A stretch of 64,000 nt of DNA from a virus, in IMG/VR virus record IMGVR_UViG_3300044612_000719, positions 1 to 64,000 of that record. One strand, 5' to 3'. Shown one piece after another: positions 17,444 through 61,617 of the stretch (position 1 is its first letter; every line of letters begins with the position of its first letter). Made by a program: the position numbers and the translations under genes. The notes beneath the pieces were generated by a model that worked only from the letters and a program-made list of their open reading frames with translations, ran no database searches and was not told the origin of the DNA.

Positions 17444-18610
17444 TTAATCCGTAAGGTTTCCGATAGCCACCCAACTATTAGGACCACGCTTAATCAAAGT
17501 GCATGCCGCCCATTGGCTAAGAAGTTTACGCTTACCACTATCTGTGTTTAAGGTAACTCCTGATGTTGGAACCAGTGTTACTTGTCCCGCACCTGTTTGG
17601 ATGATATCTATGCGATCTCCAGTAGTAAACGCTACTGAGTCGGTAGGAATGGTGAGGTTGCATGACGAACCACTAGACACTTCAACCAACTTGCCCAGGT
17701 CACTTAACACCAAAGTGTATGAACCAGCCACCGCATTAATAGTTGAGTTATAACCTGCACGAGGGGTTCCTGATCCTAGTTTGGCTTGCGTGATTGCACT
17801 GTCTGTAATTTGTGTAGTTCCAACAGTGCCAGCGTTAATATTTGCACCAGCAAGGCTTGTTAGTGCTGCACCAGAACCAGTAAATGAAGTTGCTGTAATA
17901 GCACCTGCGGTGAAGTTACCACTACCGTCACGTTGAACAATGGTGTTAGCCGTGTTGGCTGAAGCCATCGCTACATAAGTAGCAAGGTTGGTCCATGTTG
18001 ACGCACCAGTCTTTACATAGACCTGTGACTGCCCACTATTAGCGTTTGTGGTGCTTGTAACGTAAGTGTCACCTAAAACACCAGTTCCAGATGCTGGAAC
18101 ACCTGAAGCCAGACGGGCAAGCGTTGACGAGTTATACGTACGCTTGTCTACAACTAACGCCGTTGTGTATGTGCTGTTGAAGTTATTCTTTACATACACA
18201 GCGTATAACGGCATTTGACTTTCAGAGATAGTTGGGAAGATAGGGTTAGTTGAACTAGCCGTTCCTTGTACTACTGCATACTGAAAAGTACCTGAGTTGT
18301 TATAGGCAACAATAAGGTCAAAGCGTGAATCGGTGTTAGTTGGGGCAGACGGGATAATAACCGTGCTACCTGTAATAGAACCATAAACACCGTCAATACG
18401 CACTTCAGAAGTGGTGAGGACAACGTTTAGGTAAGCAGGCGTGGCGTTACCAGCCGCACTGGATACGGACGATACATCAGCACCACTGACTACGCCTGAG
18501 CGATGATCAGCAATACTTGAAAAGTCAAGCGAGTCTGGCTCGGCTTGATCTAATGAGGCGATTGTCCCAGATGCGTAATCAGTTGCGTTCGGGACTGTAA
18601 AGCCTGCCAT
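17444..18610 (-). CDS. Virion fibre protein (head or collar associated)
   Basis: RFDLIVAY..VVQGT..P anchor, TANTIVQRDGSGNF repeat, C-terminal YTLVLSD...WVAIGNL domain. Confidence 0.6.
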   Translation of the reverse strand: MAGFTVPNATDYASGTIASLDQAEPDSLDFSSIADHRSGVVSGADVSSVSSAAGNATPAYLNVVLTTSEVRIDGVYGSITGSTVIIPSAPTNTDSRFDLIVAYNNSGTFQYAVVQGTASSTNPIFPTISESQMPLYAVYVKNNFNSTYTTALVVDKRTYNSSTLARLASGVPASGTGVLGDTYVTSTTNANSGQSQVYVKTGASTWTNLATYVAMASANTANTIVQRDGSGNFTAGAITATSFTGSGAALTSLAGANINAGTVGTTQITDSAITQAKLGSGTPRAGYNSTINAVAGSYTLVLSDLGKLVEVSSGSSCNLTIPTDSVAFTTGDRIDIIQTGAGQVTLVPTSGVTLNTDSGKRKLLSQWAACTLIKRGPNSWVAIGNLTD

Positions 18611-18618
18611 TGGTTACC

Positions 18619-18861
18619 TCACAAAGTGTCGTAGATGTTTCCGCTGTTCTTTAAATAATTGTAGAGGTCACGAGGGATCGTGTAGCGGTTACCATCTTCA
18701 AAATTAAATACTTGCTGTCCCCAGAACATCGTCCAAGTTCCCTTCACACGGGCTTGAATAGTGTCACTGTTAACTACAAGTGGCTGTACTTCTACAGCGG
18801 GTGTTTCTTCTTCAGTTGTTTCCACAACTTCAGCAAATTGATTGGCTTTTTTGGTTGGCAT
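18619..18861 (-). CDS. Small capsid-adjacent protein
   Basis: Directly downstream of the major capsid gene; AGGAG SD. Confidence 0.55.
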   Translation of the reverse strand: MPTKKANQFAEVVETTEEETPAVEVQPLVVNSDTIQARVKGTWTMFWGQQVFNFEDGNRYTIPRDLYNYLKNSGNIYDTL

Positions 18862-18949: not shown

Positions 18950-20029
18950 TTAGAAGTTGGAGTCAATTGCTCCACCCTTGGTGTTGATAAGCACACGGGA
19001 TTCATGGGTGATAACACCAAAGCCCCAAATTGCGTACCAAGCCAAGCCGTGCTCACGACCGAAGTCAATTACGCCACCGTCACGGAGTTCAACTGGCAAG
19101 GCGATTGCCTGACCAAATGCGTTGTCACCGATCATCATTGCGCTGTACGAGGTTGACGTTGGGTCGTTGATTGAACCGCCTGGGGTTACGTCAACGATTC
19201 CAGTGCCACCCTGAAGTACTTGAGTGGTTTCAATGAAAACTACGTCGTAGATACGACCGATTTCACCGAGCATGAAGTTGCCAGGAGCGGCATACTTCGT
19301 GACTTCAATGAATTCAGGCCAGTCACGGAGCGCACGGCTCTGTGATGGGTGAACGAAGCACACGTAAGTGTCGCCAAGGCGTGGGATGTTCTGACCTGCG
19401 AGAATTTCAACAGCGTCCTTGATGGTTGCTGGTGAGAGGTAGCCAGGAGCCGAAGCCGAACCTGCTGCCGAGTACTCGTAAGGAGCGATTGAGCCACGGG
19501 TTGAGCCGTTGGTCTTACGACCGAAGACTACCGATGGAGCAACTGCTGAACCGCCACCGAAAGGAACGCCTGGGGCGTACAGCGTGTTGCGTGCCTGAAC
19601 GTCCATGGACTGTGCCATGTGACGACCGAGCAAGCGGCTGGACGATGCCATAACGTCATCAAACGATGCGTTCAAGAGAAGTTCGGTTACTGCAACCGAC
19701 TTACCTTGTTCTTTAACGGTGATTTGGATCTGCGATGCAGTCAAAGCGACTGGGTCCATGCGGGTACCTTCGGTCAATTCTGAACCGTTGGCGCCAACTG
19801 CGATGTTGTTGTAACGCATGAAGTTGACGGTGAGACCTGGCATAACGCCGAGTTCCGTCTTCTTTACTGCGAACTGTTCAAATCGCAATACTGGCATTGC
19901 TTGGAACAAGATTTCCTTGGACCAGATTTGCTGAATTGCAGGTGATAGTGCTGAAGAAGAGTTGTAGCCAGTTGCGCTAATGCTAGCGGTGCTGGTTACT
20001 GCTCCACTTGTTGGGGCTGGAAAAGCCAT
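18950..20029 (-). CDS. Major capsid protein, N4-gp56 family
   Basis: WSKEILFQAMPVLRFEQFA, LTEG, YVCFVHP, GEIGRIYDVVFIET, DFGREHGLAWY. Confidence 0.93.
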   Translation of the reverse strand: MAFPAPTSGAVTSTASISATGYNSSSALSPAIQQIWSKEILFQAMPVLRFEQFAVKKTELGVMPGLTVNFMRYNNIAVGANGSELTEGTRMDPVALTASQIQITVKEQGKSVAVTELLLNASFDDVMASSSRLLGRHMAQSMDVQARNTLYAPGVPFGGGSAVAPSVVFGRKTNGSTRGSIAPYEYSAAGSASAPGYLSPATIKDAVEILAGQNIPRLGDTYVCFVHPSQSRALRDWPEFIEVTKYAAPGNFMLGEIGRIYDVVFIETTQVLQGGTGIVDVTPGGSINDPTSTSYSAMMIGDNAFGQAIALPVELRDGGVIDFGREHGLAWYAIWGFGVITHESRVLINTKGGAIDSNF

Positions 20030-20917: not shown

Positions 20918-22606
20918 TTAATTGTCTTCGTCTGGGTTACGGCGTTGGGCGAACCTTGCTCCGTATGCCCGTGAAACTAACTTGTTAACTATCTCTTCTT
21001 CAATTGGTGGAACCCCTGGTAAAGGAGCATTACCACCATTTGATGAAGTGACATTACCATCTCCAGATGGGGTAGGTGCGGGAGCCGCCCCACCGTCTGG
21101 TGTCGCAACCATTCCAGTAGCCAACATAATGGCTTGCTGAATTTGGGCACGCATCATGTCAAGAGCGCCTTGATCCAGGGCGTCGTCTTGAAGTTCTTCA
21201 AAGATTTCAAGCATCTTTTCGTTCGGGAATTCCTCACCCAATGTGGCAAGAGCACCACGCTTGGACTCAAGACCAAGAGCCATCTTGGCTTGTACTTCAT
21301 TGAGTTTGATAAGCACATCAACAGGAAGCGGTTCAGGCCAGTGAACGGTTGTCCTGTAAGTAACAGGGTCAGCAGGATCCAACTGTGGGAGTTGGTCTGG
21401 TTCTGGTTCAGCCGCAATAGATGGGTTGTACGTCAACCATTCAGGCTGGAAAATAGCAACAGTACGAATGATGATTTCGTTTACTTTTTCAAGACCCTTT
21501 GTGAAGTGGATCTTTTTCATCATGAAACGGTTCATCATTGGCTGGTACTGAATAGCCAAAGCAACACCTGAGGTGTTTGATACTGGTTGGAATTGACCAA
21601 GAGCGGTCTCAGGGACACCAGTGATTTCGTGCATAGTGCGCTTTAAGAAAGTGATGTATTCCAAAGCGCCAGCCATCTCACCACGTGATTCAAGGTTGAA
21701 TACGTTTGCGTCTTTAGGAAGACCAGCCCAAACTTTCTTAGGTCCACGCTCTAGTTGCGAAGCCTTAGCACCAGTGATGATGGTTACAGGAGCGGCGTGG
21801 TAGTTGATGATGTCTGAGACTTCAACCATCTTCTCATTGAGTTCACGGTTGAGAGGAATAATATCCCAAATGTCTGACTGACCCCAAGGTGAAGAAGAGA
21901 TGGTGGAGTTCGGGATGTGAACGATAGGAATCATTCCCAACACGTTCTCGTACTGGTCAATGAGTTCATCGTTAATAAACTGTTGAACAGTTTCATCAGT
22001 AAGAATCTCAGTGAATGTGTAAACCTGACGAGTGCCTTCTGGAGATGTCCCCCAGAATCGGTATTTAAGTTTGAAGCGAATCAAACGGTCACGGTCATGC
22101 GGGTGATACTCAGGGAAGCAGTGCGCTGGGTTCAAAGGAATAATGCGCACACGTCCTTCGTGTGGAACGCCAGCAGGGTCTACGTAAGGCTCCTCATAGG
22201 CAACCTTGACAAACACGTCACCCGTTACTGAGGCTAGTTGTCCCATTTCCCAAAGCACATAATGTTTGTTGTTATCTTGATCCCAAACTTTATGGAGCAG
22301 GTGTGGAGTGATAGCACCATTTTGCTCAGGCACTTTAAATTGCACACCCTTACCAAAACAAAAGTTGGTAATGTAGTCCGACATAGTACGGACATAGTTC
22401 ATGTAGAACTGAGACTCGCCCATCTCACGGCGGTACGACCAGTGATGTCCTAGGTACCACGCCCAAGCCGCAGAATAACGGTTTAAACGTGGTCCATGAA
22501 CTTCAAACTCTTCGTCTGCGAGTTCAACCAATCCAAGCGGAGAGATAGCAACTGTGAGGTCACTTGAAGATGCACGATAAGAAGGTGACCAAAAATCAAC
22601 AGCCAT
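20918..22606 (-). CDS. Portal protein (SPP1 gp6-like)
   Basis: NVLGMIPIVHIPN...WGQSDI, NTSGVAL, VHWPEPLP motifs; synteny. Confidence 0.9.
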   Translation of the reverse strand: MAVDFWSPSYRASSSDLTVAISPLGLVELADEEFEVHGPRLNRYSAAWAWYLGHHWSYRREMGESQFYMNYVRTMSDYITNFCFGKGVQFKVPEQNGAITPHLLHKVWDQDNNKHYVLWEMGQLASVTGDVFVKVAYEEPYVDPAGVPHEGRVRIIPLNPAHCFPEYHPHDRDRLIRFKLKYRFWGTSPEGTRQVYTFTEILTDETVQQFINDELIDQYENVLGMIPIVHIPNSTISSSPWGQSDIWDIIPLNRELNEKMVEVSDIINYHAAPVTIITGAKASQLERGPKKVWAGLPKDANVFNLESRGEMAGALEYITFLKRTMHEITGVPETALGQFQPVSNTSGVALAIQYQPMMNRFMMKKIHFTKGLEKVNEIIIRTVAIFQPEWLTYNPSIAAEPEPDQLPQLDPADPVTYRTTVHWPEPLPVDVLIKLNEVQAKMALGLESKRGALATLGEEFPNEKMLEIFEELQDDALDQGALDMMRAQIQQAIMLATGMVATPDGGAAPAPTPSGDGNVTSSNGGNAPLPGVPPIEEEIVNKLVSRAYGARFAQRRNPDEDN

Positions 22607-22955: not shown

Positions 22956-23588
22956 TTATACCGTTTTACGGGTTCTTAGGTTTTCTTGACCTTGTACGTA
23001 GGTTTGGTACGGAGGTCCAGTGTAGGGGTCAAACCGAGCCGAAATGTTAAGAGCCTTAAGGGCACTCGTTTTAGCCTGCTGGGCTGTCCACTTCTTTTTG
23101 TTCATCATGACCTGTAGGGCACCTAAAGCGTATTGAGCACCAGATCCAATGGCATATATACCACTGGCTTCAGAGGACCACGCATAGTCTCCGTCCACCA
23201 TGTAAATAACACCGTTAATGACCACAAGAATGCTTGACCCTTGTTCAGCAATATGTTGTTTGTTTTCGTTGAGGTCTGGGATTGAGTAACCCTGAGCGTC
23301 AAAACATTCACGCAATGCAGGGATGAACTTGGCAGTAAAGAACTGGTCAAGTTTCTTTCCCTTTAAATTTGGAGGTACTGCTGGGGGCTGGAAAACATGG
23401 TGCAAGATATTGATTGCACGCACATCCCCAGCCGCACCTAACAGATACTTACCGTTTGTGGCAACTTTGCTAGAGCCTTCACGAAGCGTTCCAGTTTGAG
23501 CAAGCCCATCGGAATACATGGTGGAGATACGTGAGTCAACACATACCACGGCAAAACCGTCACCTTGGATTCCGACAATGGTTGTCAT
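22956..23588 (-). CDS. Ntn-hydrolase, HslV/proteasome beta-subunit-like peptidase
   Basis: MTTIVGI...DSR N-terminal Thr nucleophile, K, AIGSGAQYALGAL, DPYTG. Confidence 0.85.
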   Translation of the reverse strand: MTTIVGIQGDGFAVVCVDSRISTMYSDGLAQTGTLREGSSKVATNGKYLLGAAGDVRAINILHHVFQPPAVPPNLKGKKLDQFFTAKFIPALRECFDAQGYSIPDLNENKQHIAEQGSSILVVINGVIYMVDGDYAWSSEASGIYAIGSGAQYALGALQVMMNKKKWTAQQAKTSALKALNISARFDPYTGPPYQTYVQGQENLRTRKTV

Positions 23589-27290: not shown

Positions 27291-28850
27291 TCAATTAAAG
27301 AATGGATTTTCTGCCACCTGTATTTGAGGCAGGGTATCATGCATGGTCATAAAACAGGCGATTGCTAGGGAGTCTGGGTAGTCGTCAAAGGCACCTTTTT
27401 CATCAGGGGCTTCAGCCAACATATATGGACCACGGTAGGTCTTCTCTAGGTCGCTCATCTGTTGATTGAACCGCTTCCAACCACGGGTACGGCGAGCCTT
27501 GGAGTGACCTGGAATTATTAATTGCTCTCTCTGAATGAGTTCTGTTAGGTGCACCCAACGCTCGTGCTGGGCTTTAGAGTCCGAAGATATCGCAAGCACC
27601 TCAATATCAGGAAGCAGGATCTGCATACGTTCGGCTACAGCACCACCAACACCCTGAGAGTCAATACCAATTCTAAGGGGGTCGTAGTTGCGTAGGAAGT
27701 CAATAATCTGGAAGTACTGGGATTCCCATTCTTCGTTATTAATCTCTAGCCAGTTAAGGACACGGTGCTCATGGAACCCAAACGGATCTGGATGGTCCCA
27801 GTCAACCCAACAGACCGTCACTACGGTTGAGTCATTAGAACGGGCAACGTCAATACCGACCACCACAGGAGTACGCCACCATTGTTTTACTATTGGCATA
27901 GACGGGTCATACAAGCGATCTAATCGCTCTTCAGTAACAAACATACCTCGGTCAAGTACCCATTTATTGCAGTACGACATTTGGAATTCGTCTGAGTCTT
28001 CACCAATGCGCAGTTTTTCTTTAGCAATAAACTTTGCATAGTTAGCGTTGTATTTAGAAGCGACCTTCCAGTCGTACTCAAAGTGACATGGTCGTGTCTT
28101 TTTACCGTTGACCATACGTCGCTTGTTGTACTGGATCATCTTGTAAAAGTACGACTTGTTACGGGTAGCCGTACCTGTAAGGCAAATACTTCCGTTATTA
28201 AACGCCAACATCGGCTTAATTGATTTGGCGATCATGTACTCGTCGGCTTCCTGAGCCTCATCAATCATGACGAAGTGGTACGTTTTTGATTCAATCTTTG
28301 CTTTTGGGTTACAGGTTTGCATACGGCAAAGCGATCCAGAATGCTTCAAGGTAATAATGCGACCCTTACCACGGGCGCCACCTGATGTTGCTTTGTCGTC
28401 AATCTCTGGGTCTAACAGGAAGTCCATTGCATGGTCGCTAGTGAGTTTGCCAACGATACGACTAAATACTGTGTCTGCTTGGTCTTCTACTGGTGCAAAC
28501 ACTCCACACCAAAAGCCTTTTTCAAACTTATCAAGCCATGTCGGATATATCTTTGACAACTTAGGCAAGATGACCATGAGCGAAGCCATGACGTTAGACA
28601 GCACTTCAGACTTACCTGACTGACGTGTAGCAACCACTGTCATTTCCTCACCGTCACCAAGAATGACCGATTCAATTAATCGGTAAGCAATTGGGATCTG
28701 GTATGGGAACAACTCCACGTCACAGAACTCTTCGGTAAATACAATAATGCGTTTTACCAGTTCGTCTATGAATTCGGCGGACGTTTCGTCCAGTTCCTCG
28801 GCTATGTCCTCCGCTAAGAGGTTTTCGTCTAATTCGTCGTCTGTGAGCAC
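27291..28850 (-). CDS. terL: Terminase large subunit
   Basis: YQ motif, Walker A RQSGKS, Walker B VMIDEAQ, coupling motif TGT, nuclease VGIDVA...DDYPDS. Confidence 0.93.
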   Translation of the reverse strand: MLTDDELDENLLAEDIAEELDETSAEFIDELVKRIIVFTEEFCDVELFPYQIPIAYRLIESVILGDGEEMTVVATRQSGKSEVLSNVMASLMVILPKLSKIYPTWLDKFEKGFWCGVFAPVEDQADTVFSRIVGKLTSDHAMDFLLDPEIDDKATSGGARGKGRIITLKHSGSLCRMQTCNPKAKIESKTYHFVMIDEAQEADEYMIAKSIKPMLAFNNGSICLTGTATRNKSYFYKMIQYNKRRMVNGKKTRPCHFEYDWKVASKYNANYAKFIAKEKLRIGEDSDEFQMSYCNKWVLDRGMFVTEERLDRLYDPSMPIVKQWWRTPVVVGIDVARSNDSTVVTVCWVDWDHPDPFGFHEHRVLNWLEINNEEWESQYFQIIDFLRNYDPLRIGIDSQGVGGAVAERMQILLPDIEVLAISSDSKAQHERWVHLTELIQREQLIIPGHSKARRTRGWKRFNQQMSDLEKTYRGPYMLAEAPDEKGAFDDYPDSLAIACFMTMHDTLPQIQVAENPFFN

Positions 28851-46730: not shown

Positions 46731-48032
46731 TTAACCTACGACAACGATGGTGTAATCGTTAGCGGCAATCGTTCCATAGAGTACTACGGAAAGAGTGTTT
46801 CCGTTTGAACGGGTCACATCACCAATTACCGTTGCACCAGTTGCTACTTCGTAAATCTGTACGTTTACATCAGTTGTACCAAAGTTGTGGGTAACTGTGG
46901 TGGTTGAAACACCTGTGCTACTTGCGGCACATCCTTGCTTTGCAGTACGAGCCAAAGCAGGGGTACTTGTTGTACGTCCAGTTGCTTCAGCGGCTGCTGA
47001 GGCGAGGTTTGTGCGGGCACCAGACTCCGTGGATGAACCAGTACCACCGTCTGTAACAGCGACATCTGTACCGTTCCAAACACCCGTGGTAATCGTACCC
47101 AAGGTGGTGATGCTTGCTTGACCAACATAAGTGCTTGCAATGTCTACAGCATCTGCACTAACCGAGATACGATCAGTAGTACCAATAACATTAAGGGTGT
47201 TACCAGTCTTGGTGAGACCGTCACCAGCAAAGATAGAACCAGCAACTGAGAACAAAGCCCATGTGAGACCCGTTACACCTACGTTGATGGTTCCGTTAGT
47301 TGTGAGAACCCAACCGCTGTCTGCGTTAAGTGTTCCTTCTTCTACGAAGGTAAACGCTCCAGGAGTTACTTCTGCGTTGGAGTCAAAATCAGTTGCACGA
47401 ACTGCGGCACCTGAAGCCTGAACAACGTAGATACCGTTCTCTGATGCGGTGCTCTGGTCTTTAACAAGAACACGGTCACCAGCAACAAGTGTTACGTTGG
47501 TGTCAAGGGTGTCACCAGCCTCAAGGTCTGATGCAAGGTTGATTGGCGCAGTTGTTGCGGCACGTACCGAAGCCTTAACGTCAAGACCTGAACGAGCAGC
47601 GTCTACGTAAGACTTAGTTGCGGCATGGTCAGGGTCAGTTGGCGTACCAAACTTTGCTTGACCGTTAGCGTCACGGAGAACAAGTTTGTTTGCAGTTGCT
47701 TCAGAAGTGGCGTCTGCCAACTTTGAGAAGTCTGAGGCTGAGAGGAGACCAGCACTTGCTGAGGTAGCAAGGTTTGGCGTAATGGTAATGGCACCATTAG
47801 ATTCGTTGATAGTAAGGGCTGTTGACTGGGAACCAGCGGCGGTTACGCCAGTAATCATCTTGCGCCATGCGGCGGCAGTTAGGTCATAAACTTTAATTAC
47901 ACCTTCAGTGCTATTAAAGATCATACGACCATCAAATAGACCAGTGTTAGGGTCGGTGCCTACTACTTCAAACGAACCGTTAAGCAGTTGGTTCTGATTG
48001 AGGTCAATATTAGTTAGAAACTTTTGAGCCAT
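46731..48032 (-). CDS. Fibre shaft protein
   Basis: AATKSYVD..GLDVKASVRAAT, GDRVLVKDQ....NGIYVV, FTFVEEGT. Confidence 0.75.
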   Translation of the reverse strand: MAQKFLTNIDLNQNQLLNGSFEVVGTDPNTGLFDGRMIFNSTEGVIKVYDLTAAAWRKMITGVTAAGSQSTALTINESNGAITITPNLATSASAGLLSASDFSKLADATSEATANKLVLRDANGQAKFGTPTDPDHAATKSYVDAARSGLDVKASVRAATTAPINLASDLEAGDTLDTNVTLVAGDRVLVKDQSTASENGIYVVQASGAAVRATDFDSNAEVTPGAFTFVEEGTLNADSGWVLTTNGTINVGVTGLTWALFSVAGSIFAGDGLTKTGNTLNVIGTTDRISVSADAVDIASTYVGQASITTLGTITTGVWNGTDVAVTDGGTGSSTESGARTNLASAAAEATGRTTSTPALARTAKQGCAASSTGVSTTTVTHNFGTTDVNVQIYEVATGATVIGDVTRSNGNTLSVVLYGTIAANDYTIVVVG

Positions 48033-53791: not shown

Positions 53792-54247
53792 CTAGCGCTT
53801 GTAGCGGGCGCCTTGCTTACCAAGGTTTACACGTCCTAAATTTTCAGATACATCTTCACCAGTATCAAGATCAGTCATAGATCCTGGGCGAATCTTTAGA
53901 GGGTTACCACCACGAAGGTTAGGACCAACAGTTCCTCTAACAAAAGTGTTACGTGTCTTTGCTTTTGTTGGATTTTCTAGATGTTTTTTAAGTTCCCTAG
54001 CGTCTACTGCCATACTGGCGTTTTCTAATGAAATGTTTTTACTGTGCCCAATAAGGAGTCGGGAGTTATCAAGAACGCTGTAGATAGGTTCACCTAAGGC
54101 TTTAGTAGCAGGGGTGTGCATATGGACGTTGACAGGTGTGCCCCTTAGACCAACCATGGATTCAGGACTGATAATGCGAACAGGTGTTCCACGAACAATG
54201 TGCTCTTCAGAAAACTGAATGCCATTAAGGTCACGTCTACTAGCCAT
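53792..54247 (-). CDS. Hypothetical phage protein with N-terminal LNGIQF tag
   Basis: YSV...IGHSKNISL.NA...RNTFVRG pattern; TAATG coupling. Confidence 0.7.
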   Translation of the reverse strand: MASRRDLNGIQFSEEHIVRGTPVRIISPESMVGLRGTPVNVHMHTPATKALGEPIYSVLDNSRLLIGHSKNISLENASMAVDARELKKHLENPTKAKTRNTFVRGTVGPNLRGGNPLKIRPGSMTDLDTGEDVSENLGRVNLGKQGARYKR

Positions 54248-55089
54248 TAGTCAATCCCTGGAAGTTTCATTTGCTCGCCTTGCATGGCAGGGCGCTTTTC
54301 ACGTTTATTTAATCCAGCAAGTCTATAGGCTGTTTGCCTACCTTCAGCAATTGTTTGAGGTGACAAACGTTCAGCGTTACTAAAGTCAAGGTGTTCTGGA
54401 CGATGAGCCATACTCCATTTAGTGTCGTCAGGGCGCATTAGTGTTTGCCTACCTGACTCATTATTTACGGCTCCCTTAATAACTCCCTTTTCTATTCCTT
54501 TACGAGCCAACCTACTGCTGTATTGCGTCATACTTCCAGGGCTGTGAAACTCTGCATCAGGGTGGTCATTCATAGCGATACCTATAAGGGTAGGTAAAGA
54601 ACCACGCAATGTAGGGTGCATAAAAGCATTTTCAAATTGAACTTTACGTGGTTTGCTGGTAAACAACTCTGTAGGTACAGGTATGTCTTTGCGAGTTTCC
54701 GCAGGGGCATTGTGGTCTAATGCCGCACGTAGTTTCTTTGTACGCTCAGGATCACGTGTTGCGATCATGTCACTTGTTGCTTTTTGATTTTTGTCCCACA
54801 TGTAATGCTGGCTAATGCCAGTGTCTAAAGTCTGTTGGGCGTGTGGGTAACGAGGGTCGTGCGTGTTTGCTTTTAATCTTTCCATGTTTTCTGGATCAAA
54901 ATCAAAGTTAACAATAGTTTCAGCAGGTTCTATTGTTTCCACTGCAATGTGTCCATAAGGTACGTGTGTTGGAGGTTTTTGACTCAGTTCATCAAACTGG
55001 TTACCGTGAACCAACTTATCCCCGACAATAGAATACTTAGTGTTTCTACCACCGTACCAGTGACTATCTTTCTTATAAAACTTAGCCAT
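54247..55089 (-). CDS. Hypothetical protein, paralog of 58275-58934; C-terminal EQMKLPG
   Basis: Shared TELFT.[KR]P...DHP.A....P.S[ML]..[YF]SS[RK]LA blocks. Confidence 0.7.
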   Translation of the reverse strand: MAKFYKKDSHWYGGRNTKYSIVGDKLVHGNQFDELSQKPPTHVPYGHIAVETIEPAETIVNFDFDPENMERLKANTHDPRYPHAQQTLDTGISQHYMWDKNQKATSDMIATRDPERTKKLRAALDHNAPAETRKDIPVPTELFTSKPRKVQFENAFMHPTLRGSLPTLIGIAMNDHPDAEFHSPGSMTQYSSRLARKGIEKGVIKGAVNNESGRQTLMRPDDTKWSMAHRPEHLDFSNAERLSPQTIAEGRQTAYRLAGLNKREKRPAMQGEQMKLPGID

Positions 55090-56780
55090 TAAACTTCAAA
55101 ACCTGGTAACTGTAGTTGTTCACTTTTAGAAGCAGTTTTAGCATTAACACGGTCTTGGTAGAATTGACGTGCTTCCCTACCTGCTGTTCTTAAACTCTTA
55201 TTTGGGTTGCTATCAATAGCATTACGAACGTGCTCATGGGCGTCGTATAAGTGACCCAACATTAGTTTATTAGCAAGGTCTCGGGTTGGTCGGGTTTCAT
55301 CTGCTGTGGAATGACGCATAACTAATTGCTTGCGTGTAGGTGTTTCTCTAAACACTTTAGGATCAGCAACAGCGCTTGCGTGGGCACGCACTGCCGAGTA
55401 CACAGCCCTTTCAGTATTAGTAGTCCAACGACGGTGTCCTGTAGTGTATCCAGAACTGGCGTGTAGATCACCTACATCACCAGTTTCAAACATTCTTTGT
55501 GAATACTTGTTGTTATCATCTGCACTACCCCATAGATCCCTATGAGCATCAGCAATACCTTCTGATACAGGGTCTGCCCCACCTTTGTCGTAAATGTCAA
55601 AACGATGCTTATTATCCATTTTGTGACCCATCTCATGGATGATGGTAGAGCGAGACACACTTGGATTTGTTTTTGTCACAATGGTTTTACCACGAACTGT
55701 TTTTTCAACAGGGGTTCCCCCAGTTACTTCACTTCGTGTATGCCATGTTTTTTCTGACCACCTGTTTGCACCATACCCATATACACCAGCGTATGGTTCT
55801 ACAGCAACATTTGGGTTTTTCTTTTTAATGTCAGAACCTGTTCCAGAAAATGCATTTATTTGATAACCCTTTTCAACAAAGTCTTCTGCTTTAATATTTT
55901 GAGCATTTACTTGTTTGTTTCCACCAATCATGTTTGGTGCTTTAGGAATCTTCTTTTCAATTTCTCCGACTGTGTTGTATCTTGAATAAGAGCGAGTGCC
56001 TGGTTTGTCTTTTTGCGTCCATTGACGACCTTCAGGGGTAGTGACAACTGCACCAGCCCTTAATGCATCGTTAATTGGCAGGCCCATGCGGTGAGATTGT
56101 TCATCACCTAAATCTTTACTTAATTGTTGAATAAACTTAGGATTGTTTATCGGTGTCTTGTCGCCACCTGTTATCACTGTACGGGTAGTGTCAGGTTCTT
56201 TGGAATAGGTTTTTTCGTAGTTTAATGGTTGACGAATAACATCAATTCTTCCAGAAGTAACCCCTTCAAGACTCGCTCCTGGGAATGTATTGTCAATGTG
56301 CCCTGCATGTCTTACGTCCTCAACAGCCACTGCTAACGCTGGCTGTTTGTTTGCAAACTCTGAATTAATCATGTGGGTAGACATTTGAGAGGTATCTACG
56401 GCGTGGGTGTAGGCATTACGTGAATCTTCGGCAGTTTTCTTGCTCAAAGGTTTTCCAGTCAAATTCCTAGTACGAGCCACACCAGCATTTTTACGGTAGG
56501 TCTCAAGATCAGACATTCCTAGACCTTTTTGAATTGCTTCAATGCGCTTTTCATGAGGGATCAACGGGTCATTGCGTCTACCCGTACCTGTTTCAGGACT
56601 GAACAACATTCCTTGTGCGTTAACAGTTCTTGCTTGAGCACGTGCCGCAATACCTGAAGTTTGTTCTATTTCGTACTTATGTTTACCTTCAGCAAAACCA
56701 TGAGGGTTAAGCAAAGACGCATGAGTCTCACCTTGGTCATCATGCCAGTAGGTGTTTTCAAACTGTCGTCCAAGAGCCAT
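55089..56780 (-). CDS. Zincin metallopeptidase-domain protein; N-terminal LGRQF and C-terminal EQLQLPG
   Basis: STIIHEMGH (HExxH) with downstream SEGIAD third-ligand motif. Confidence 0.7.
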   Translation of the reverse strand: MALGRQFENTYWHDDQGETHASLLNPHGFAEGKHKYEIEQTSGIAARAQARTVNAQGMLFSPETGTGRRNDPLIPHEKRIEAIQKGLGMSDLETYRKNAGVARTRNLTGKPLSKKTAEDSRNAYTHAVDTSQMSTHMINSEFANKQPALAVAVEDVRHAGHIDNTFPGASLEGVTSGRIDVIRQPLNYEKTYSKEPDTTRTVITGGDKTPINNPKFIQQLSKDLGDEQSHRMGLPINDALRAGAVVTTPEGRQWTQKDKPGTRSYSRYNTVGEIEKKIPKAPNMIGGNKQVNAQNIKAEDFVEKGYQINAFSGTGSDIKKKNPNVAVEPYAGVYGYGANRWSEKTWHTRSEVTGGTPVEKTVRGKTIVTKTNPSVSRSTIIHEMGHKMDNKHRFDIYDKGGADPVSEGIADAHRDLWGSADDNNKYSQRMFETGDVGDLHASSGYTTGHRRWTTNTERAVYSAVRAHASAVADPKVFRETPTRKQLVMRHSTADETRPTRDLANKLMLGHLYDAHEHVRNAIDSNPNKSLRTAGREARQFYQDRVNAKTASKSEQLQLPGFEV

Positions 56781-56789
56781 ACACTTAGT

Positions 56790-57431
56790 TTAGTTGATAT
56801 GAACGCTTCCCGAGAACGACACACCTTCTAAATTAAAATTCACAAAAGGGTTTAGAGAGTACACAGTGCAACCAAACTTTTCTGCTAACCATCGCTTTAG
56901 CATGATTAATTGAGTGTTGTACAACTCCCAAGGGTTATCACCAGGGACATAAGCGCCAAAACGATCTCTACCGTTCAACTTGCCACAGTCGGCACCAACC
57001 AACACAATGTGTTTAGCGCCCATGTAGGCGGCTAAGTGCATCGCACCATGAATACTGGAGGCACCAATGACCAACCCATCTGTTGGAGCGTCCTTACCAT
57101 AGGGGTCAAAACTCGCTCCAGGCTGTCCTGTCTCCGTTTCAAACAGCACAACGTTATCGGGAACGTCTCCGACCCACTCTTCAGCGTTCCCATGCTGTTT
57201 TTTAGGCGTAAAAACGTAATTTGAACACTCTGACATCTCTAATGAGTCGGCGTGATAGTGCGAAAACGTGTAGTAGTTCAATAAATTAAACGTTTTGCCA
57301 ACAAAATTGACCCCAACACACACTTTGTCATCAAAAAATGACGGTGTTAAGAAATCTAAAGAGCCACCAGAGCCTAAAACCCAGACAGTTTCACCTTTGT
57401 ACAGGTCTTTGAAGGTTTCTAACGCTGGCAT
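56790..57431 (-). CDS. DUF115/MAF (MptE-like) glycosyltransferase-fold protein
   Basis: FKDLYKGETVWVLGSGGSL, GVN, AMHLAAYMGAKHIVLVGAD. Confidence 0.78.
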   Translation of the reverse strand: MPALETFKDLYKGETVWVLGSGGSLDFLTPSFFDDKVCVGVNFVGKTFNLLNYYTFSHYHADSLEMSECSNYVFTPKKQHGNAEEWVGDVPDNVVLFETETGQPGASFDPYGKDAPTDGLVIGASSIHGAMHLAAYMGAKHIVLVGADCGKLNGRDRFGAYVPGDNPWELYNTQLIMLKRWLAEKFGCTVYSLNPFVNFNLEGVSFSGSVHIN

Positions 57432-57472
57432 GGCTAGAGATTAGCCCCTTTCACCGAAAAATTGTACAAAAG

Positions 57473-57853
57473 TTAGTCTAAATCTTCTTCTGGTTGATAG
57501 GAAGTACGGGAATAATATTTGTCTTCAAACTTTGAAGCAATATGTGTGGATGCTGGGTTGATAGTCAAGCCCCAATCAACATGTGATTTTGGGTAACGGT
57601 TGTACAAGTGCTCCATAAGGCGTTGAGCATGTCCTTGTCCTTCAACATGGCTCTTTAAATAATCTACTTCTATTCTTGAGGATGGGTCAGAGTGTGGGTC
57701 GTTATAATGCTCAAAAGACACACGTGCAAGGTCTAAGCCTTTTTTAGGGTCTGTCAACGTAAGGGAATGCCATCCTCTTCCACCAGACACGCCCTGTCCT
57801 AGTTTTTGATGGACTATTTTAAATTGTCCACCTAAATTCTCGTGTGCCGCCAT
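57473..57853 (-). CDS. GNAT-like protein with N-terminal AHENLGGQF tag
   Basis: IEVDYLKSHVEGQGHAQRLMEHL acetyl-CoA-binding-type motif. Confidence 0.65.
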   Translation of the reverse strand: MAAHENLGGQFKIVHQKLGQGVSGGRGWHSLTLTDPKKGLDLARVSFEHYNDPHSDPSSRIEVDYLKSHVEGQGHAQRLMEHLYNRYPKSHVDWGLTINPASTHIASKFEDKYYSRTSYQPEEDLD

Positions 57854-58275
57854 TATCTTTTCCTTGTAGGTGGGGTAAATACATATGCGTCAATGGATGG
57901 GCGTTTATCAATTAAAGCAGCAGCAATACGGTGATGTCCATCTAGAATTTCAGCAGTACCTTTATGCATATATACCTGTGGATACTCCAAATGCTCGTAT
58001 TCTGGGTCTTCTTCCTCACCGTATATGTCTGATTTTCGCTCAGAACCTGCTTTCCTGTAAGCATCTACTGTTCTGGGATTTAAGTCAGTTTGTTTGTTGC
58101 TAAAAAACTTGGTGTTTTGAAGGTCTAGTTGTGTAGTTCCACGTTCTACTGCTTCAGAATAATCTTCTTTAAACAGTGGTCTACCTTTCATGGGCCAATT
58201 TTTGGGAGTAGATGTACCAATACCTACTTTTTTAAGGCTGTCAAACTGACCGCTTAAGTTCTCGTGTGCACCCAT
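57853..58275 (-). CDS. ParB/Srx-like protein with N-terminal AHENLSGQF tag
   Basis: PQVY...ILDGHHRIAAA. Confidence 0.75.
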   Translation of the reverse strand: MGAHENLSGQFDSLKKVGIGTSTPKNWPMKGRPLFKEDYSEAVERGTTQLDLQNTKFFSNKQTDLNPRTVDAYRKAGSERKSDIYGEEEDPEYEHLEYPQVYMHKGTAEILDGHHRIAAALIDKRPSIDAYVFTPPTRKR

Positions 58276-58934
58276 TACTTGTCTTCCATACCTGGGAGTT
58301 GGGGTTGATCAAACTTAGGTGCAGGCGCCGTTTGTTCTTTTCTAGGACGCAACGTCTCTTTAAGGAACTGTTTACCTTTCATGACCTCTGACCGTGTGAG
58401 TTCAAACGCATTTACACCTAGTCGGTCAGTTGTGATCCTGTGTACGCTTCCCACCTGACGGGCATACACATCGCCTTCATTGGGGTCCTCATCGGTTTCC
58501 ATTTTAGGGTTCTCATAACTAGGCTTCAATAAACCACGTTCATGTGCATTCTTAGCCAGTTTGCTACTAAAGTTACTTAAACTGTCTGGTGCCACAACCT
58601 GAGCGTTCGGATGGTCTAGTTTGGCTAGTGCCATCACTGTCATCATGTGGGGACGGACACGCTTGTCGGCGTACATGAGGTTGACGTGCAGTTCCTCAGG
58701 TCGGTGCGTGAACAACTCGGTAGCGTTTTTCCTCATCGGGTGACCATCACTATCAAAGTTAGGGTCTTCTCGGGATGGCGTGTGGTACATGCTGGCGTAC
58801 CCGTAAGGATACTGAGGCTTACCCCCTGCTCTAGCGGTCGCCGCCGCATCGGGGGTGTCATGAATAACACCATACGTGGGGTAACTTACGCCGTCACCAT
58901 AACCTTTGTTCGGGTTTTTGAAGTAGCGAGCCAT
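58275..58934 (-). CDS. Hypothetical protein, paralog of 54247-55089; C-terminal DQPQLPG
   Basis: Shared N-terminus MA[RK][YF][FY]K, Y[GS][VI][IV].D, PYG..., TELFT blocks. Confidence 0.7.
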   Translation of the reverse strand: MARYFKNPNKGYGDGVSYPTYGVIHDTPDAAATARAGGKPQYPYGYASMYHTPSREDPNFDSDGHPMRKNATELFTHRPEELHVNLMYADKRVRPHMMTVMALAKLDHPNAQVVAPDSLSNFSSKLAKNAHERGLLKPSYENPKMETDEDPNEGDVYARQVGSVHRITTDRLGVNAFELTRSEVMKGKQFLKETLRPRKEQTAPAPKFDQPQLPGMEDK

Positions 58935-59311
58935 TAGTCTTTATCCCATATTTTACTTACACGGTGCTGTACAGGGATTTCCATGTTTGGATCAATATCG
59001 TGTGCTGTGGCAATACGGTGGTGCCCGTCACTAATCATTTTATGTGGAAACTGTCCGATGTGGGTGATGCTTATAGGCTCTTCTACACCCGTAGTTTGAA
59101 TACTTTCACGATCTGCACCTTTTTTCCATACTTTGTATTTGTATGTACTTTTGTCCTCAGACATGGGTTTTAGGTGCTTCAAGCCCTCAGGGTCAGGGGT
59201 TCTGTCCAGATTCAATATAGGCCATGAGTCACCAGCGTGTACATTCATCAGTTCACGGGCAGGCATGAACATTTGCAATTGTTCGTGGTTGAGGCTCTCG
59301 TGTGCCGCCAT
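58934..59311 (-). CDS. ParB/Srx-like protein with N-terminal AHESLNHEQL tag
   Basis: SIQTTGVEEPI...ISDGHHRIATA...IPV. Confidence 0.78.
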   Translation of the reverse strand: MAAHESLNHEQLQMFMPARELMNVHAGDSWPILNLDRTPDPEGLKHLKPMSEDKSTYKYKVWKKGADRESIQTTGVEEPISITHIGQFPHKMISDGHHRIATAHDIDPNMEIPVQHRVSKIWDKD

Positions 59312-59469
59312 TACTTCTTCTTCCGTTCCTGTTTTTGCTTATTCTTCTCTAGCAGGTACTCAGGGTCACGCTTAGTAAAGCCTGCGGCTTGATGGATCTC
59401 GGAGCGGGGCACAGGCTCACCATCTACCCATACGTAGTCATTGAACTGTTGTCCGTCTAGGCGTGGCAT
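59311..59469 (-). CDS. 52-aa protein with N-terminal LDGQQF tag
   Basis: Read by hand: MPRLDGQQFNDYVWVDGEPVPRSEIH...KQERKKK; TATACT 6 nt upstream; TAATG coupling. Confidence 0.75.
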   Translation of the reverse strand: MPRLDGQQFNDYVWVDGEPVPRSEIHQAAGFTKRDPEYLLEKNKQKQERKKK

Positions 59470-59486
59470 TTACCTAGTATAGATGG

Positions 59487-59885
59487 TTACTTACGTGGGG
59501 GAAGAGTGTCACCTGTAGATTTAGCCCAAGCGTCGCCTTCTGGGGTGCGCTGGGGGGAATGGCTTGGGATAGGTATAACGCCTTTAGAAGCCCTGGCAAC
59601 GGTTTGAGAATGCTTCAGTGCCGCTGTAGCCAAACCTTTTCTACGATGTTCTGGTGACACTTCAATTTCTAAGATTTCAGTAGCAGAATCAGGTCTTTCG
59701 GATTTTTCCCACTCCATGAATCCCACACGTCGTCCACCTTGAGGAAGCCCCAAAGCATCAATACTTCGTGATGTGTCCACGATGTCCGTTCTCCATGTAT
59801 CTGGAGTGGACTCTGGGAGGTCAGGATTAGAGCCAATAGGGTGCGTTCTGAACTGATAGTTGTTCAGGTTGTTCCTAGCAGGCAT
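59487..59885 (-). CDS. GNAT acetyltransferase with N-terminal LNNYQF tag
   Basis: VGFMEW...ILEIEVSPEHRRKGLATAAL...HS..RTPEGDAWA. Confidence 0.82.
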   Translation of the reverse strand: MPARNNLNNYQFRTHPIGSNPDLPESTPDTWRTDIVDTSRSIDALGLPQGGRRVGFMEWEKSERPDSATEILEIEVSPEHRRKGLATAALKHSQTVARASKGVIPIPSHSPQRTPEGDAWAKSTGDTLPPRK

Positions 59886-59891
59886 GTTTCA

Positions 59892-59897
59892 AGTATA
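59892..59897 (-). promoter_or_regulatory. Leftward -10 element TATACT, leaderless start at 59885
   Basis: TATACT-N6-ATG, the same spacing as 11 other sites in the window. Confidence 0.7.
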
Positions 59898-60022
59898 GGG
59901 CTATTTGGGCGAGGTGGGTGGTCCGTCGGATTTTTGAATGGGGCTATTGGGCAGTTGAGCGTTGGGTGGGGCCTCTGTCCTACCCCCAGCCCCGCCACCA
60001 CGGCTCGCTTAACCATGGGGGG

Positions 60023-60123
60023 TTATCCACAGCCCGCACCCATACTGGGCATGGCTTTGCTGAGTTATCCACAGGTACTCCTGTGTACATCCTGTGGATA
60101 CCGTGGAACATCGCTGTGGAACA
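60023..60123. promoter_or_regulatory. Cluster of DnaA-box-like sites
   Basis: Perfect TTATCCACA at 60023 and 60065; inverted near-matches TGTGGATAC (60093) and TGTGGAACA (60115), plus weaker ones at 60082 and 60102. Confidence 0.6.
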
Positions 60124-60144
60124 TTGAGGGCGAACCCACGTTCG

Positions 60145-60176
60145 TATGACGTTCGTCACGTGTGACGTTCGTCACG
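60145..60176. repeat. Tandem 16-bp palindromic repeat resembling CRP/GlxR sites
   Basis: TATGACGTTCGTCACG followed directly by TGTGACGTTCGTCACG (consensus TGTGA-N6-TCACA). Confidence 0.6.
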
Positions 60177-60673
60177 CCATTGTTACAACTTCATGACAAT
60201 GTGCCCGAAATGCTTGACAAATGGAAAATGCCCTCAGACGCATCAGGAGCCATTCTCAGAGGAGGAGAGGCGGGTGCAAGGGGTCAAGGCGGACACAGGT
60301 ACAAAGTACCCTCAGAGAGCGCCTCGTATGCCTAGGAATGGGGCTATGAGCCTTACGGTGCATGGGTTTGCGGGGTATGGGTAGGTTGTACACATGCCCC
60401 ACAAGCCCCCGTATTGCTATCCACTGCACCATCGCTCCATTCCACGTATTGCACGCAACACAGCGCATCCTGAAGCGTCTCAGAGCATTCTGCAGTGTTC
60501 ATTGATCAATTGAATTCTCTGCCCATTCCATGCCTTCTCCTGCTTCTCCTGTATCTCCTCCTCCATCCGATGGATGGCTGGTCGTTGGGGGCGCCCAATT
60601 CCAGCCCTAGATCCGCTCCAGCCCTTACGGGGCTTGGCTCGGAAGATTCTCAGGAATTGTTTGAATTTGGTCG

Positions 60674-60702
60674 TTGCTATTCGTACACCCATCCACTAGC
60701 CT
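60674..60702 (+). promoter_or_regulatory. Probable early sigma70-type promoter
   Basis: TTGCTA-17 nt-TAGCCT, upstream of the structured leader and the plus-strand genes. Confidence 0.6.
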
Positions 60703-60745
60703 CCAGTCAGGAGTTGCGTTGCGGTACGGGGCGCAGTCTCCTGAG

Positions 60746-60765
60746 GTTCCTTGAAAATTGAAGAG
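60746..60765 (+). promoter_or_regulatory. rrn-leader boxA-like element
   Basis: GTTCCTTGAAAATTGAAGAG resembles Gram-positive/actinobacterial rRNA leader boxA (GTTCYTTGARAACT...), preceded by a hairpin at 60707-60744. Confidence 0.6.
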
Positions 60766-60766
60766 C

Positions 60767-60946
60767 GCCCGAATTGCTTCGGCAAAAATGCACGCATGCA
60801 TGTGGCACGTCCCCGAGTCCGCTCGGTCGGCTCGTGCCTTGCAGAGATGGCTTCAACGGATCCATGCATGCCCGCCACGGGGGAATTGAACAACAGTCCC
60901 TCACGGCGCATTACTCAACGGCTCAAACCGTTCGCTGACTTCGGGC
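60767..60946 (+). ncRNA. Candidate ~180-nt multibranched structured RNA
   Basis: Nested helices read by eye: 60767-73/60940-46, UUCG hairpin 60774-85, 60787-91/60908-12, 60794-802/60863-71, 60804-09/60833-38, 60813-17/60822-26, 60879-84/60897-902, 60917-21/60928-32. Confidence 0.6.
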
Positions 60947-60967
60947 ACATGGTTCAAATTCCTCAGC

Positions 60968-61047
60968 GTCACGGGTCATCTTCGGATGGCTCGTGGCGCT
61001 CATAGAGCACTGGGGTTCATCCCCTGACTCCAGTGCTGTATGAGCGC
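60968..61047 (+). promoter_or_regulatory. Double-hairpin leader element A (UUCG hairpin plus long hairpin)
   Basis: GTCACGGGTCATC-TTCG-GATGGCTCGTGGC then GCGCTCATAGAGCACTGGGG...CTCCAGTGCTGTATGAGCGC. Confidence 0.7.
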
Positions 61048-61098
61048 AGAGCGCTCCGCTGGCAACCAGCCAGCGCAGTCCTGAGGAGGACACACACC

Positions 61099-61617
61099 AT
61101 GAAAGCAACACGACAGCAACTACTCAATCTCGGAGCCAGCATCCTGAGCACTGCCTATGAAGGCGGGTCTTGCGGAATGGCTTCATGGGCAGTTGCCAAT
61201 GGCACCTACAAGTGGGGCACGGAGAAGGGCGAAGGCGAATTGCACGGCAACGAGCACTACGCATCAGTCACCGTGTACGACACCGAAGCGTGCGAGTTGG
61301 TGGAAGACGAAGCCGAATTGGCGAAGTTGACCGATGACGATGGCTTCAATGGCTGGGGCGGGTTCTACCGCTTCGGCAAGCCACTCGTGATCAATGAGTC
61401 CATCATTGCTGACTTCATTGAGAAGATCGGCACAGGTGAGTTCAATCAGGACAATGTGCCTGACTACGGTCAACTGTCAATCAAGCGGGTGAGTGCCCTT
61501 GCAGGGTGCTACCTGTTCGGTGAAGACGCCATTGACGAATTTGAGTCCGACAATGACTGCATCGTGTCTGACACCATCGTGCAGTTCATCCTGCTCGGTG
61601 AGGTCACATACGGCTGA
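61099..61617 (+). CDS. Early acidic hypothetical protein
   Basis: GAGGAGG SD before ATG 61099; TAYEGG...W and D.IVQF.LLGEV.YG motifs. Confidence 0.8.
   Translation: MKATRQQLLNLGASILSTAYEGGSCGMASWAVANGTYKWGTEKGEGELHGNEHYASVTVYDTEACELVEDEAELAKLTDDDGFNGWGGFYRFGKPLVINESIIADFIEKIGTGEFNQDNVPDYGQLSIKRVSALAGCYLFGEDAIDEFESDNDCIVSDTIVQFILLGEVTYG

Follow-up and report, generated by a model that had tools for sequence, protein, structure and literature searches.

A capsid-targeting sequence (CTS), itself conserved, is all that the diverse defence proteins encoded at the T-even internal-protein locus have in common (PMC3012670). In phage P1, the Dar anti-restriction proteins loaded into the head are ParB-like and zincin-type, DdrB being ParB-like plus zincin (PMC9024508, PMC5512222), and the 30 residues at the N-terminus of DarB suffice for head loading (PMC9024508). 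Polyvalent domains, either fused or encoded as solo versions near late genes, were inferred by Iyer et al. (2017) to be delivered with the DNA, and capsid deployment was proposed for the solo versions; a shared N-terminal peptide tag is not described in that work (PMC5512222). Here we analyse a short N-terminal peptide, which we call tag A, on seven proteins encoded in the 97,275-bp virus record IMGVR_UViG_3300044612_000719 (genome label G000), the first 64 kb of which form the window. The tagged genes lie in an island of ten densely packed minus-strand genes at 53792-59885. Literature searches found no description of the motif, and only the T4 and P1 systems as analogues.

All seven tagged genes begin with L-x(1-3)-Q-[FL] within 12 residues. 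The long form of tag A is M-[AGSP]-[AS]-x-[EDN]-[NH]-[LI]-x(1-3)-Q-[FL], and the short form, M-x-L-x(1-3)-Q-F, keeps the core and lacks the preface. A first-pass annotation, made from the DNA letters, had listed seven minus-strand reading frames sharing such a start, and their N-termini and coordinates were found as listed. They include the frame at 59311, which the automatic track of open reading frames (ORFs) had missed; it is a real gene of 52 residues, since an ORF of the sister phage L010 (contig JACCDP010385985) matches it at 91% identity. The island genes are given below, from the highest coordinates downwards; untagged island genes with close counterparts in L010 are listed as framework genes, and tag B is a second, C-terminal motif described further on.

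59487-59885, minus strand: tagged gene 1, 132 residues, GNAT acetyltransferase (PF00583, E=2.4e-7, above cutoff)
59850-59885, minus strand: tag A of tagged gene 1, codons 1-12, with its own TATACT-N6-ATG start
59311-59469, minus strand: tagged gene 2, 52 residues, basic C-terminal tail (91% identical to L010 3522-3692)
59443-59469, minus strand: short-form tag A of tagged gene 2 (the L010 counterpart has the long form)
58934-59311, minus strand: tagged gene 3, 125 residues, ParB/Srx-like with DGHHR (Foldseek on an AlphaFold2 model)
58275-58934, minus strand: framework gene, 219 residues, no tag A, C-terminal tag B Q-P-Q-L-P-G-M-E (90% identical to L010 4219-4869)
57853-58275, minus strand: tagged gene 4, 140 residues, tag A at 58243-58275 (no counterpart in L010)
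57473-57853, minus strand: tagged gene 5, 126 residues, body family unassigned, tag A at 57821-57853 (tagged homologue at L016 2917-3297)
56790-57431, minus strand: untagged framework gene, 213 residues, MptE/Maf-like (PF01973, E=4e-6, below curated cutoff; 95% identical in L010)
55089-56780, minus strand: tagged gene 6, 563 residues, zincin-like metallopeptidase with HExxH and a downstream Glu, short tag A at 56760-56780
54247-55089, minus strand: framework gene, 280 residues, paralogue of 58275-58934, C-terminal tag B Q-M-K-L-P-G-I-D (91% identical in L010)
53792-54247, minus strand: tagged gene 7, 151 residues, tag A at 54212-54247 (89% identical in L010)

A regular-expression scan of all ORFs of at least 40 residues in the 97,275-bp genome placed the N-terminal motif, among real genes, in these seven and in one tail-fibre protein (46731-48032), whose N-terminus is of a different, known kind. 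With a looser expression, seven of the ten island genes matched, whereas the 140 remaining ORFs gave five matches (Fisher p=2.9e-7). In a set of 540 ORFs, taken from the genome and from 23 related loci on metagenomic contigs, the motif occurred at 13 per 1000 residues within the first 16 positions and at about 1.5 elsewhere, an enrichment of about 9-fold, and these positional statistics rule out chance or low complexity as its origin. It heads some 25-30 unrelated body families, among them zincin, ParB/Srx-like, GNAT and ART-like proteins and tiny peptides. The tagged bodies are mutually unrelated by BLAST and hhalign; in this respect, and in its N-terminal restriction above background on varying domains, the motif behaves as had been proposed. 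As judged by its distribution along these proteins, tag A is an N-terminally restricted peptide common to unrelated cargo.

The residue profile comes from an alignment of 108 distinct tagged N-termini anchored at the Gln, which is therefore fixed by construction. The position after Gln is Phe in 60% and Leu in 39%, and a Leu or Ile lies three to four residues upstream. Gln is residue 10 or 11 of the long form, behind the M-[AS]-A-x-[ED]-[NH] preface, and residue 6 or 7 of the short form. Basic C-terminal tails were not a significant co-feature of tag A (18% versus 12%, p=0.08).

The peptide is kept where its codons are not. Among 29 zincin homologues, some as distant as 25% identity and with columns on average 31% identical, M1, L3, G4, Q6, F7, N9 and T10 are invariant, as is HExxH, while the same tag residues are written with five codons for Leu3, three for Gly4, four for Thr10 and two for Gln6. 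Homologues of the GNAT protein likewise retain L-[NS]-x-Y-Q-F, and the residues upstream vary, switching between long and short forms. Between the 53792 protein and its L010 orthologue the tag residues L, N, Q and F are retained and the remaining tag residues differ. Since the tag residues are invariant while the codons vary, the codon comparison places selection on tag A at the level of the peptide. A nucleotide-level signal acting in the promoter, in RNA or in translation is ruled out: synonymous codons differ among the seven island tags, and in four of the seven genes translation is coupled and not leaderless. In AlphaFold2 models of the zincin and the ParB-like protein, tag A forms a lower-confidence stretch immediately before the first confident strand. 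Residues 1-10 of the zincin have a predicted local distance difference test score (pLDDT) of 67, with a strand at 10-13; in the ParB-like 58934 protein residues 1-10 score 62 and residues 11-20 score 92.

Comparison with the sister phage indicates that the bodies are exchanged beneath the tags. The framework proteins of G000 and L010 are 85-98% identical, and these comprise the two tag-B paralogues, the MptE-like protein, the tagged proteins of 151 and 52 residues, and the lysis-like and fibre gene products. Against this background, six tagged genes of L010 have no counterpart in G000, and four of G000 have none in L010. Three of the L010-only genes are ART-like by their [YF]-H-G-[ST] start, two of which gave weak matches to ART-PolyVal PF18760 (E 2-4e-3, below cutoff). 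The zincins of the two phages (55089-56780 versus L010 5816-7540) are just 39% identical overall, with flanking genes at 90-95%; the gene is a mosaic, ~85% identical to L010 in the DNA of its first ~90 and its last ~10 codons and replaced in the middle. Nucleotide homology between the two phages ends 7 nucleotides before the first island ATG in both, restarts exactly at the Q-F codons of the 52-residue gene, and extends 14 nucleotides (M-[AS]-A-H-E) into the following gene before ending again. With the breakpoints of homology at the tag codons, the bodies have been swapped and the tags stay. Judged from these alignments, tag A marks exchangeable cassettes in a fast-changing, hypervariable island, in line with the earlier suggestion of a swappable library of effector-type proteins under one N-terminal peptide; the cassettes differ even between near-identical phages. 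In other relatives the number of tagged genes reaches ten, with additional bodies among them.

The tag also has a dialect within each genome. Tags of one locus agree with one another more than with those of other genomes at preface positions 2, 4 and 5 (p=0.0006, 0.004 and 0.0002), identical tag residues use the same codon at a rate of 0.54 within loci and 0.40 between loci, and in L054 a run of 14 nucleotides of tag codons is identical in four genes. This dialect reflects either gene conversion among the cassettes or co-evolution with a partner that varies between phage lineages.

These features bring the locus close to the T4 CTS, which is found on IPI-III and Alt and in the polymorphic IP locus: there too a peptide of about ten residues at the extreme N-terminus is the sole common part of a fast-changing set of small proteins in one locus, and tag A is just such a peptide on the unrelated proteins of one variable locus. 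As with T4 CTS cargo, an anti-defence or host-takeover role is plausible here. There are also differences. No sequence similarity between tag A and the T4 CTS was noted, the two not having been aligned. The present phages are a BRock-like siphovirus lineage of actinobacteria with a different capsid type, in which packaging is predicted; neither a gp21-type prohead protease nor an L/I-x-E cleavage site was found here; and the cargo set is larger and rich in enzymes. With P1 Dar the locus shares ParB-like and zincin-type proteins among the putative cargo, but the Dar proteins have no shared N-terminal consensus and are giant fusions, whereas here a single consensus spans ~25-30 families of solo small proteins. 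The repertoire of ParB-like, RimI-like GNAT, ART-PolyVal and zincin bodies next to late genes is that of polyvalent proteins, as the first-pass annotation had recognised for ParB, GNAT and zincin, with a weak ART-PolyVal component to be added. Polyvalent proteins join at least two domains, however, while each island protein has one body, and when longer forms of the ParB-like protein were sought, only two weak matches of 231-247 residues came back. The shared peptide tag may here be a substitute for the covalent fusion of polyvalent proteins. By analogy with these systems, tag A would be a targeting peptide on diverse phage effector cargo, with a new motif, in a new lineage and on a much broader cargo.

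We infer that tag A is a docking peptide through which all of the cargo meets one common partner. It would immediately precede the first structural element in many small enzymes and peptides that are unrelated to one another, and the partner would be a component of the assembling virion, such as the inner capsid surface, the scaffold or the portal. The effector-type set (ParB/Srx-like, GNAT, ART-like and zincin proteins) would then be packaged for delivery alongside the DNA, in the manner of the T4 internal proteins with their CTS. That tag A loads cargo into the virion is the reading we prefer, tentatively and at somewhat less than an even chance, because of the likeness to the T-even internal-protein locus, the N-terminal signal of P1 DarB, the polyvalent-type cargo, the strictly N-terminal position of the tag, its occurrence in one capsid lineage, and its lineage dialects. 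The dialect (p<=0.004) is as expected of a partner that varies with the phage lineage.

Several observations weigh against virion loading. No conserved cleavage site was found after Q-F, and scanning the head genes turned up no classical prohead protease. A gene for an HslV/proteasome-beta-like peptidase lies at 22956-23588, just upstream of the portal gene (phrog_1040, E=4e-24), and is absent from G003 and G004, two complete tag-bearing genomes, and also from Streptomyces phage BRock. BRock belongs to the same capsid lineage (major capsid protein (MCP) 58% and portal ~53-55% identical) and is without the system, a full scan giving background, and no cultured relative among 50,697 phage records carries it. 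In several relatives the small tagged genes have their own operon, divergent from the late genes. The motif is internal in 3 of 150 ParB-like proteins, and gene conversion can also account for the within-genome dialect. Promoter structure contributes little on timing: the first-pass annotation had assigned the tagged genes the same leaderless promoter as terL, and the island does have this start-site architecture in common with terL, but a TAnAnT-N6-ATG leaderless start of their own is present at just three of the seven genes (59487, 59311 and 55089), and the remaining four overlap the preceding stop codon. TAnAnT-N6-ATG is moreover a generic actinobacterial leaderless form, and the promoter argument for late timing is therefore weak.

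The best placed of the other explanations draws on tag B. Three island proteins end in Q-x-x-L-P-G-h-[ED] (55089-55118, 54247-54270 and 58275-58305). In the data set this pattern is C-terminal in 23 cases, N-terminal in two and internal in two, and a broader expression is 17-fold enriched at C-termini (27 C-terminal versus 19 internal). The zincin tag B lies within a disordered tail (residues 553-563, pLDDT ~50), and in the model it thus occupies a disordered terminus, as a clamp-binding motif would. Clamp-binding sequences include QL[SD]LF and the N-terminal QLSLPL of Hda. The definition of the motif is Q-phi-x-[LM]-[FL] or Q-phi-x-[LM]-x-[FL] (PMC11139829). Tag B resembles these motifs in being a hydrophobic stretch of five to seven residues that starts with Q and lies in disordered termini, and some orthologues replace it with exact canonical forms: Q-L-S-L-G-L in L024 and Q-M-K-L-F in L029 (both zincins), Q-L-N-L-F in a 312-residue protein of L001, and Q-F-K-L-F in L031. 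Such forms are a minority; the dominant Q-x-x-L-P-G-h form has P-G where a hydrophobic residue is needed and does not fit the definition, and neither does tag A (L-x(1-3)-Q-F). Clamp binding is a putative property read from the motif. Tags A and B stand in tandem at the N-termini of proteins in L027 (6004), L029 (5740), L028 (5594) and L005 (11722), and are therefore distinct determinants. A phage-encoded sliding clamp is ruled out as receptor, none having been found in the replication module (PolA, DnaB, primase, RecA, a Cas4-like nuclease and a DnaA/IstB-like ATPase).

On these grounds both tags could tether the phage enzymes to a host hub on DNA, either the beta sliding clamp or some other protein of the replisome or nucleoid, and the enzymes would act in the infected cell without being packaged. 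The C-terminal enrichment of tag B in a disordered tail, the orthologues that fit the definition (PMC11139829), the tandem arrangement and the lack of a phage clamp gene all agree with this, as does the known use of the clamp by mobile-element proteins; the tag core is also constant across loci of very different GC content, and so probably different hosts, as a conserved pocket requires. Tag A, however, falls outside the clamp definition with its L and Q positions swapped, and it is strictly N-terminal, whereas hub motifs, including tag B, can sit at the N- or C-terminus or in between. Q-x-x-L-P-G, the main form of tag B, fails the strict definition, and a pocket that is highly conserved would not be expected to go with a dialect particular to each genome. 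In the ParB-like family, Q-L-x-M-F follows tag A directly and is modelled inside the fold (pLDDT 92), suggesting that it may be a structural element and not a free motif. We regard host-hub docking as unlikely, though it is the main rival.

A combined scheme can be drawn up in which tag A loads the cassette enzymes into the virion, tag B docks a subset of them on the host clamp or DNA after injection, and in-frame recombination at the tag codons swaps effectors, giving a non-covalent, modular substitute for polyvalent proteins across an uncultured actinobacterial phage lineage. As a whole this two-code system is improbable.

We give little credence to the alternative that tag A is a processing or turnover signal, either a pro-peptide keeping toxic enzymes inactive or a degron, read by the HslV-like peptidase, the island zincin, or the host Clp or proteasome. 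It would explain the strict N-terminal position and the hydrophobic Q-F ending right before the fold. The zincin is a constant member of the island, and an HslV-family gene lies next to the portal gene in G000 and within a few kilobases of tagged genes in six loci (L002, L040, L042, L044, L045 and L063); in tag-bearing relatives it was seen beside the endolysin gene. Its absence from the complete tag-bearing genomes G003 and G004 nevertheless rules out the HslV-like peptidase as an obligatory partner. The ParB-like tagged family (240 clusters) is far broader than the zincin family (39), and the zincin is therefore probably not the universal partner; it is itself tagged, and Q-F is followed by no conserved cleavage context.

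Least credible of all is that the conserved 5' gene end is a recombination handle for in-frame swaps and the peptide a tolerated by-product or generic cap: the G000/L010 breakpoints inside or at the edge of the tag codons, the identical tag codons within a genome (the 14 nucleotides in four L054 genes, for example) and the dialect all speak for it. It may account for the preface (M-A-A-H-E), but it leaves unexplained the L-x-x-Q-F core, which is retained with many codons across distant phages and in short-form tags that drop the preface, and a site-specific system would need stretches of nucleotide identity that are longer and less variable.

If tag A is an address label, it defines from sequence alone a large, otherwise unannotated set of proteins that are candidates for injected or anti-defence effectors in the abundant phages of freshwater actinobacteria, to which the ParB-like family alone would contribute 240 clusters at 50% identity. 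It would then be only the second case, after the T-even internal-protein locus, in which diverse cargo shares a consensus targeting peptide, and the phage lineage is an unrelated one; it would offer a route for the delivery of solo effector domains without polyvalent fusion, and a compact candidate tag of 7-12 residues with which to load foreign proteins into a siphovirus head. The clamp-like tag B makes it testable whether phage effectors ride the host sliding clamp.

Searches of wider collections returned few copies. No match was found by tblastn of the zincin and the ParB-like protein against the 50,697 phage records, or by blastn of the island against cultured phage records, and GTDB representative genomes held no prophage or bacterial copies. 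A search of IMG/VR with the exact back-translated long-form pattern gave two loci only, because the tag is too degenerate for such a pattern. In every tag-bearing record in which the capsid could be checked, the MCP is of one lineage (G002 81%, G004 75%, G003 63%, and G008 and G009 ~70%, partial); the other tag-bearing records are fragments, and the capsid comparison therefore does not separate a virion partner from a host partner. The GC content of the tag-bearing loci ranges from 0.42 to 0.61.

Some of these relatives have features of their own. BRock (NC_048650.1) encodes at 17586-18752 on the minus strand a 388-residue ORF with a tag-like start, M-A-T-S-P-H-N-L-S ... G-A-Q-F with an insertion, which is the sole tag-like N-terminus in that genome; it adjoins a homologue of the ORF at 73689-75149 of G000. 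In G003, the record of L053, the MCP homologue (C1:42608-43786) matches in two pieces (query 21-288 and 290-352) about 225 nucleotides apart within one 450-residue frame, which suggests that the capsid protein of this 117-kb relative carries an insertion. A low-GC subgroup has a conserved protein of about 100 residues that begins with a short tag A, M-S-N-L-[NS]-x-x-Q-F, and has a C-terminus rich in Gly (L040 7197-7535, L042 3676-3966, L045 2299-2592 and L044 7630-7983). It adjoins a protein of 560-610 residues with a signal-peptide-like start, and may therefore be a virion or envelope-acting component.

Assignment of the island bodies rests on profile searches and structural models. Two GNAT-like bodies had been proposed; 59487 is one, whereas 57473 has no significant match in Pfam or PHROG. 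Of two proposed ParB/Srx-like bodies, 58934 stands by its fold. Its Pfam search gave no match, but Foldseek with the model found KorB, ParB, Noc and Srx as best matches, with probabilities up to 0.99 and E-values of 4e-3 and weaker, and DGHHR is almost invariant in the family. The modelled protein accordingly combines a ParB N-terminal-domain fold with the GxxR/DGHHR nucleotide-binding segment of the ParB/Srx superfamily. Its relatives number 240 at E<=1e-3 (representatives clustered at 50% identity), and tag A, which spans residues 1-12 in 58934 itself, heads 123 of the best 150. The second candidate, 57853, has only the DGHHR segment in common with the ParB-like proteins (hhalign probability 93.7%, 15 columns).

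The zincin assignment of 55089 held: HExxH plus Glu is invariant in its homologues, and the best VIA-align matches are zincins, weak but consistent at Z 5-6, although Foldseek of the whole model against the Protein Data Bank gave nothing at E<=0.001. The model has a pLDDT of 81.6 with the last 11 residues disordered, and an internal Q-G-M-L-F is present at residues 56-60, in addition to the C-terminal tag B. The MAF-like 56790 protein lacks the tag, as had been noted. No family was assigned by Pfam or PHROG to the 53792 and 59311 proteins.

A third recurrent N-terminus, M-A-[RK]-[YF]-F-K, was seen on both tag-B framework paralogues (58275-58934 and 54247-55089) and at L010 4219 and 7540 and L001 13476. 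Each such framework gene is followed by a tag-A gene, with overlapping stop and start codons. In the high-GC relative L031 (5217-5996), tag A stands in place of M-A-[RK]-[YF]-F-K, and the C-terminus carries Q-F-K-L-F.

The minus strand of the window holds the tail, head, terminase, fibre and lysis-like genes. The first four entries below are supported by PHROG matches; the leader that borders the island is listed after them.

7521-10202, minus strand: tape measure
18950-20029, minus strand: MCP
20918-22606, minus strand: portal
27291-28850, minus strand: terL
59886-61104, no strand: conserved non-coding leader in the gap between the island and the early operon, left border of the variable island (81% nucleotide identity to L010 935-2150)

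By MCP, the cultured phages nearest to G000 are BRock and its relatives, with 58% identity. A WhiB gene is present at 72472-72888 of the genome (PF02467, E=6e-13). WhiB is confined to Actinobacteria and their phages. Together with the leaderless TAnAnT-N6-ATG starts, this points to an actinobacterial host for G000. A scan of 48-62 kb for promoters and terminators gave nothing above shuffled expectation. TAnAnT exactly 6 nucleotides before the start codon, with no Shine-Dalgarno sequence, was seen at 59487, 59311, 56790, 55089, 53609, 53166, 51534, 48470, 30136, 27291 and 15053; these leaderless-type starts are dispersed in the late block, and most structural genes have a Shine-Dalgarno sequence instead. 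The island adjoins lysis, fibre and head genes. It is flanked on one side by the lysis-like and fibre genes and on the other by the conserved leader and a divergent early operon, and the leader (~1.2 kb, 81% identity to the sister phage) is better conserved than the neighbouring cassettes.

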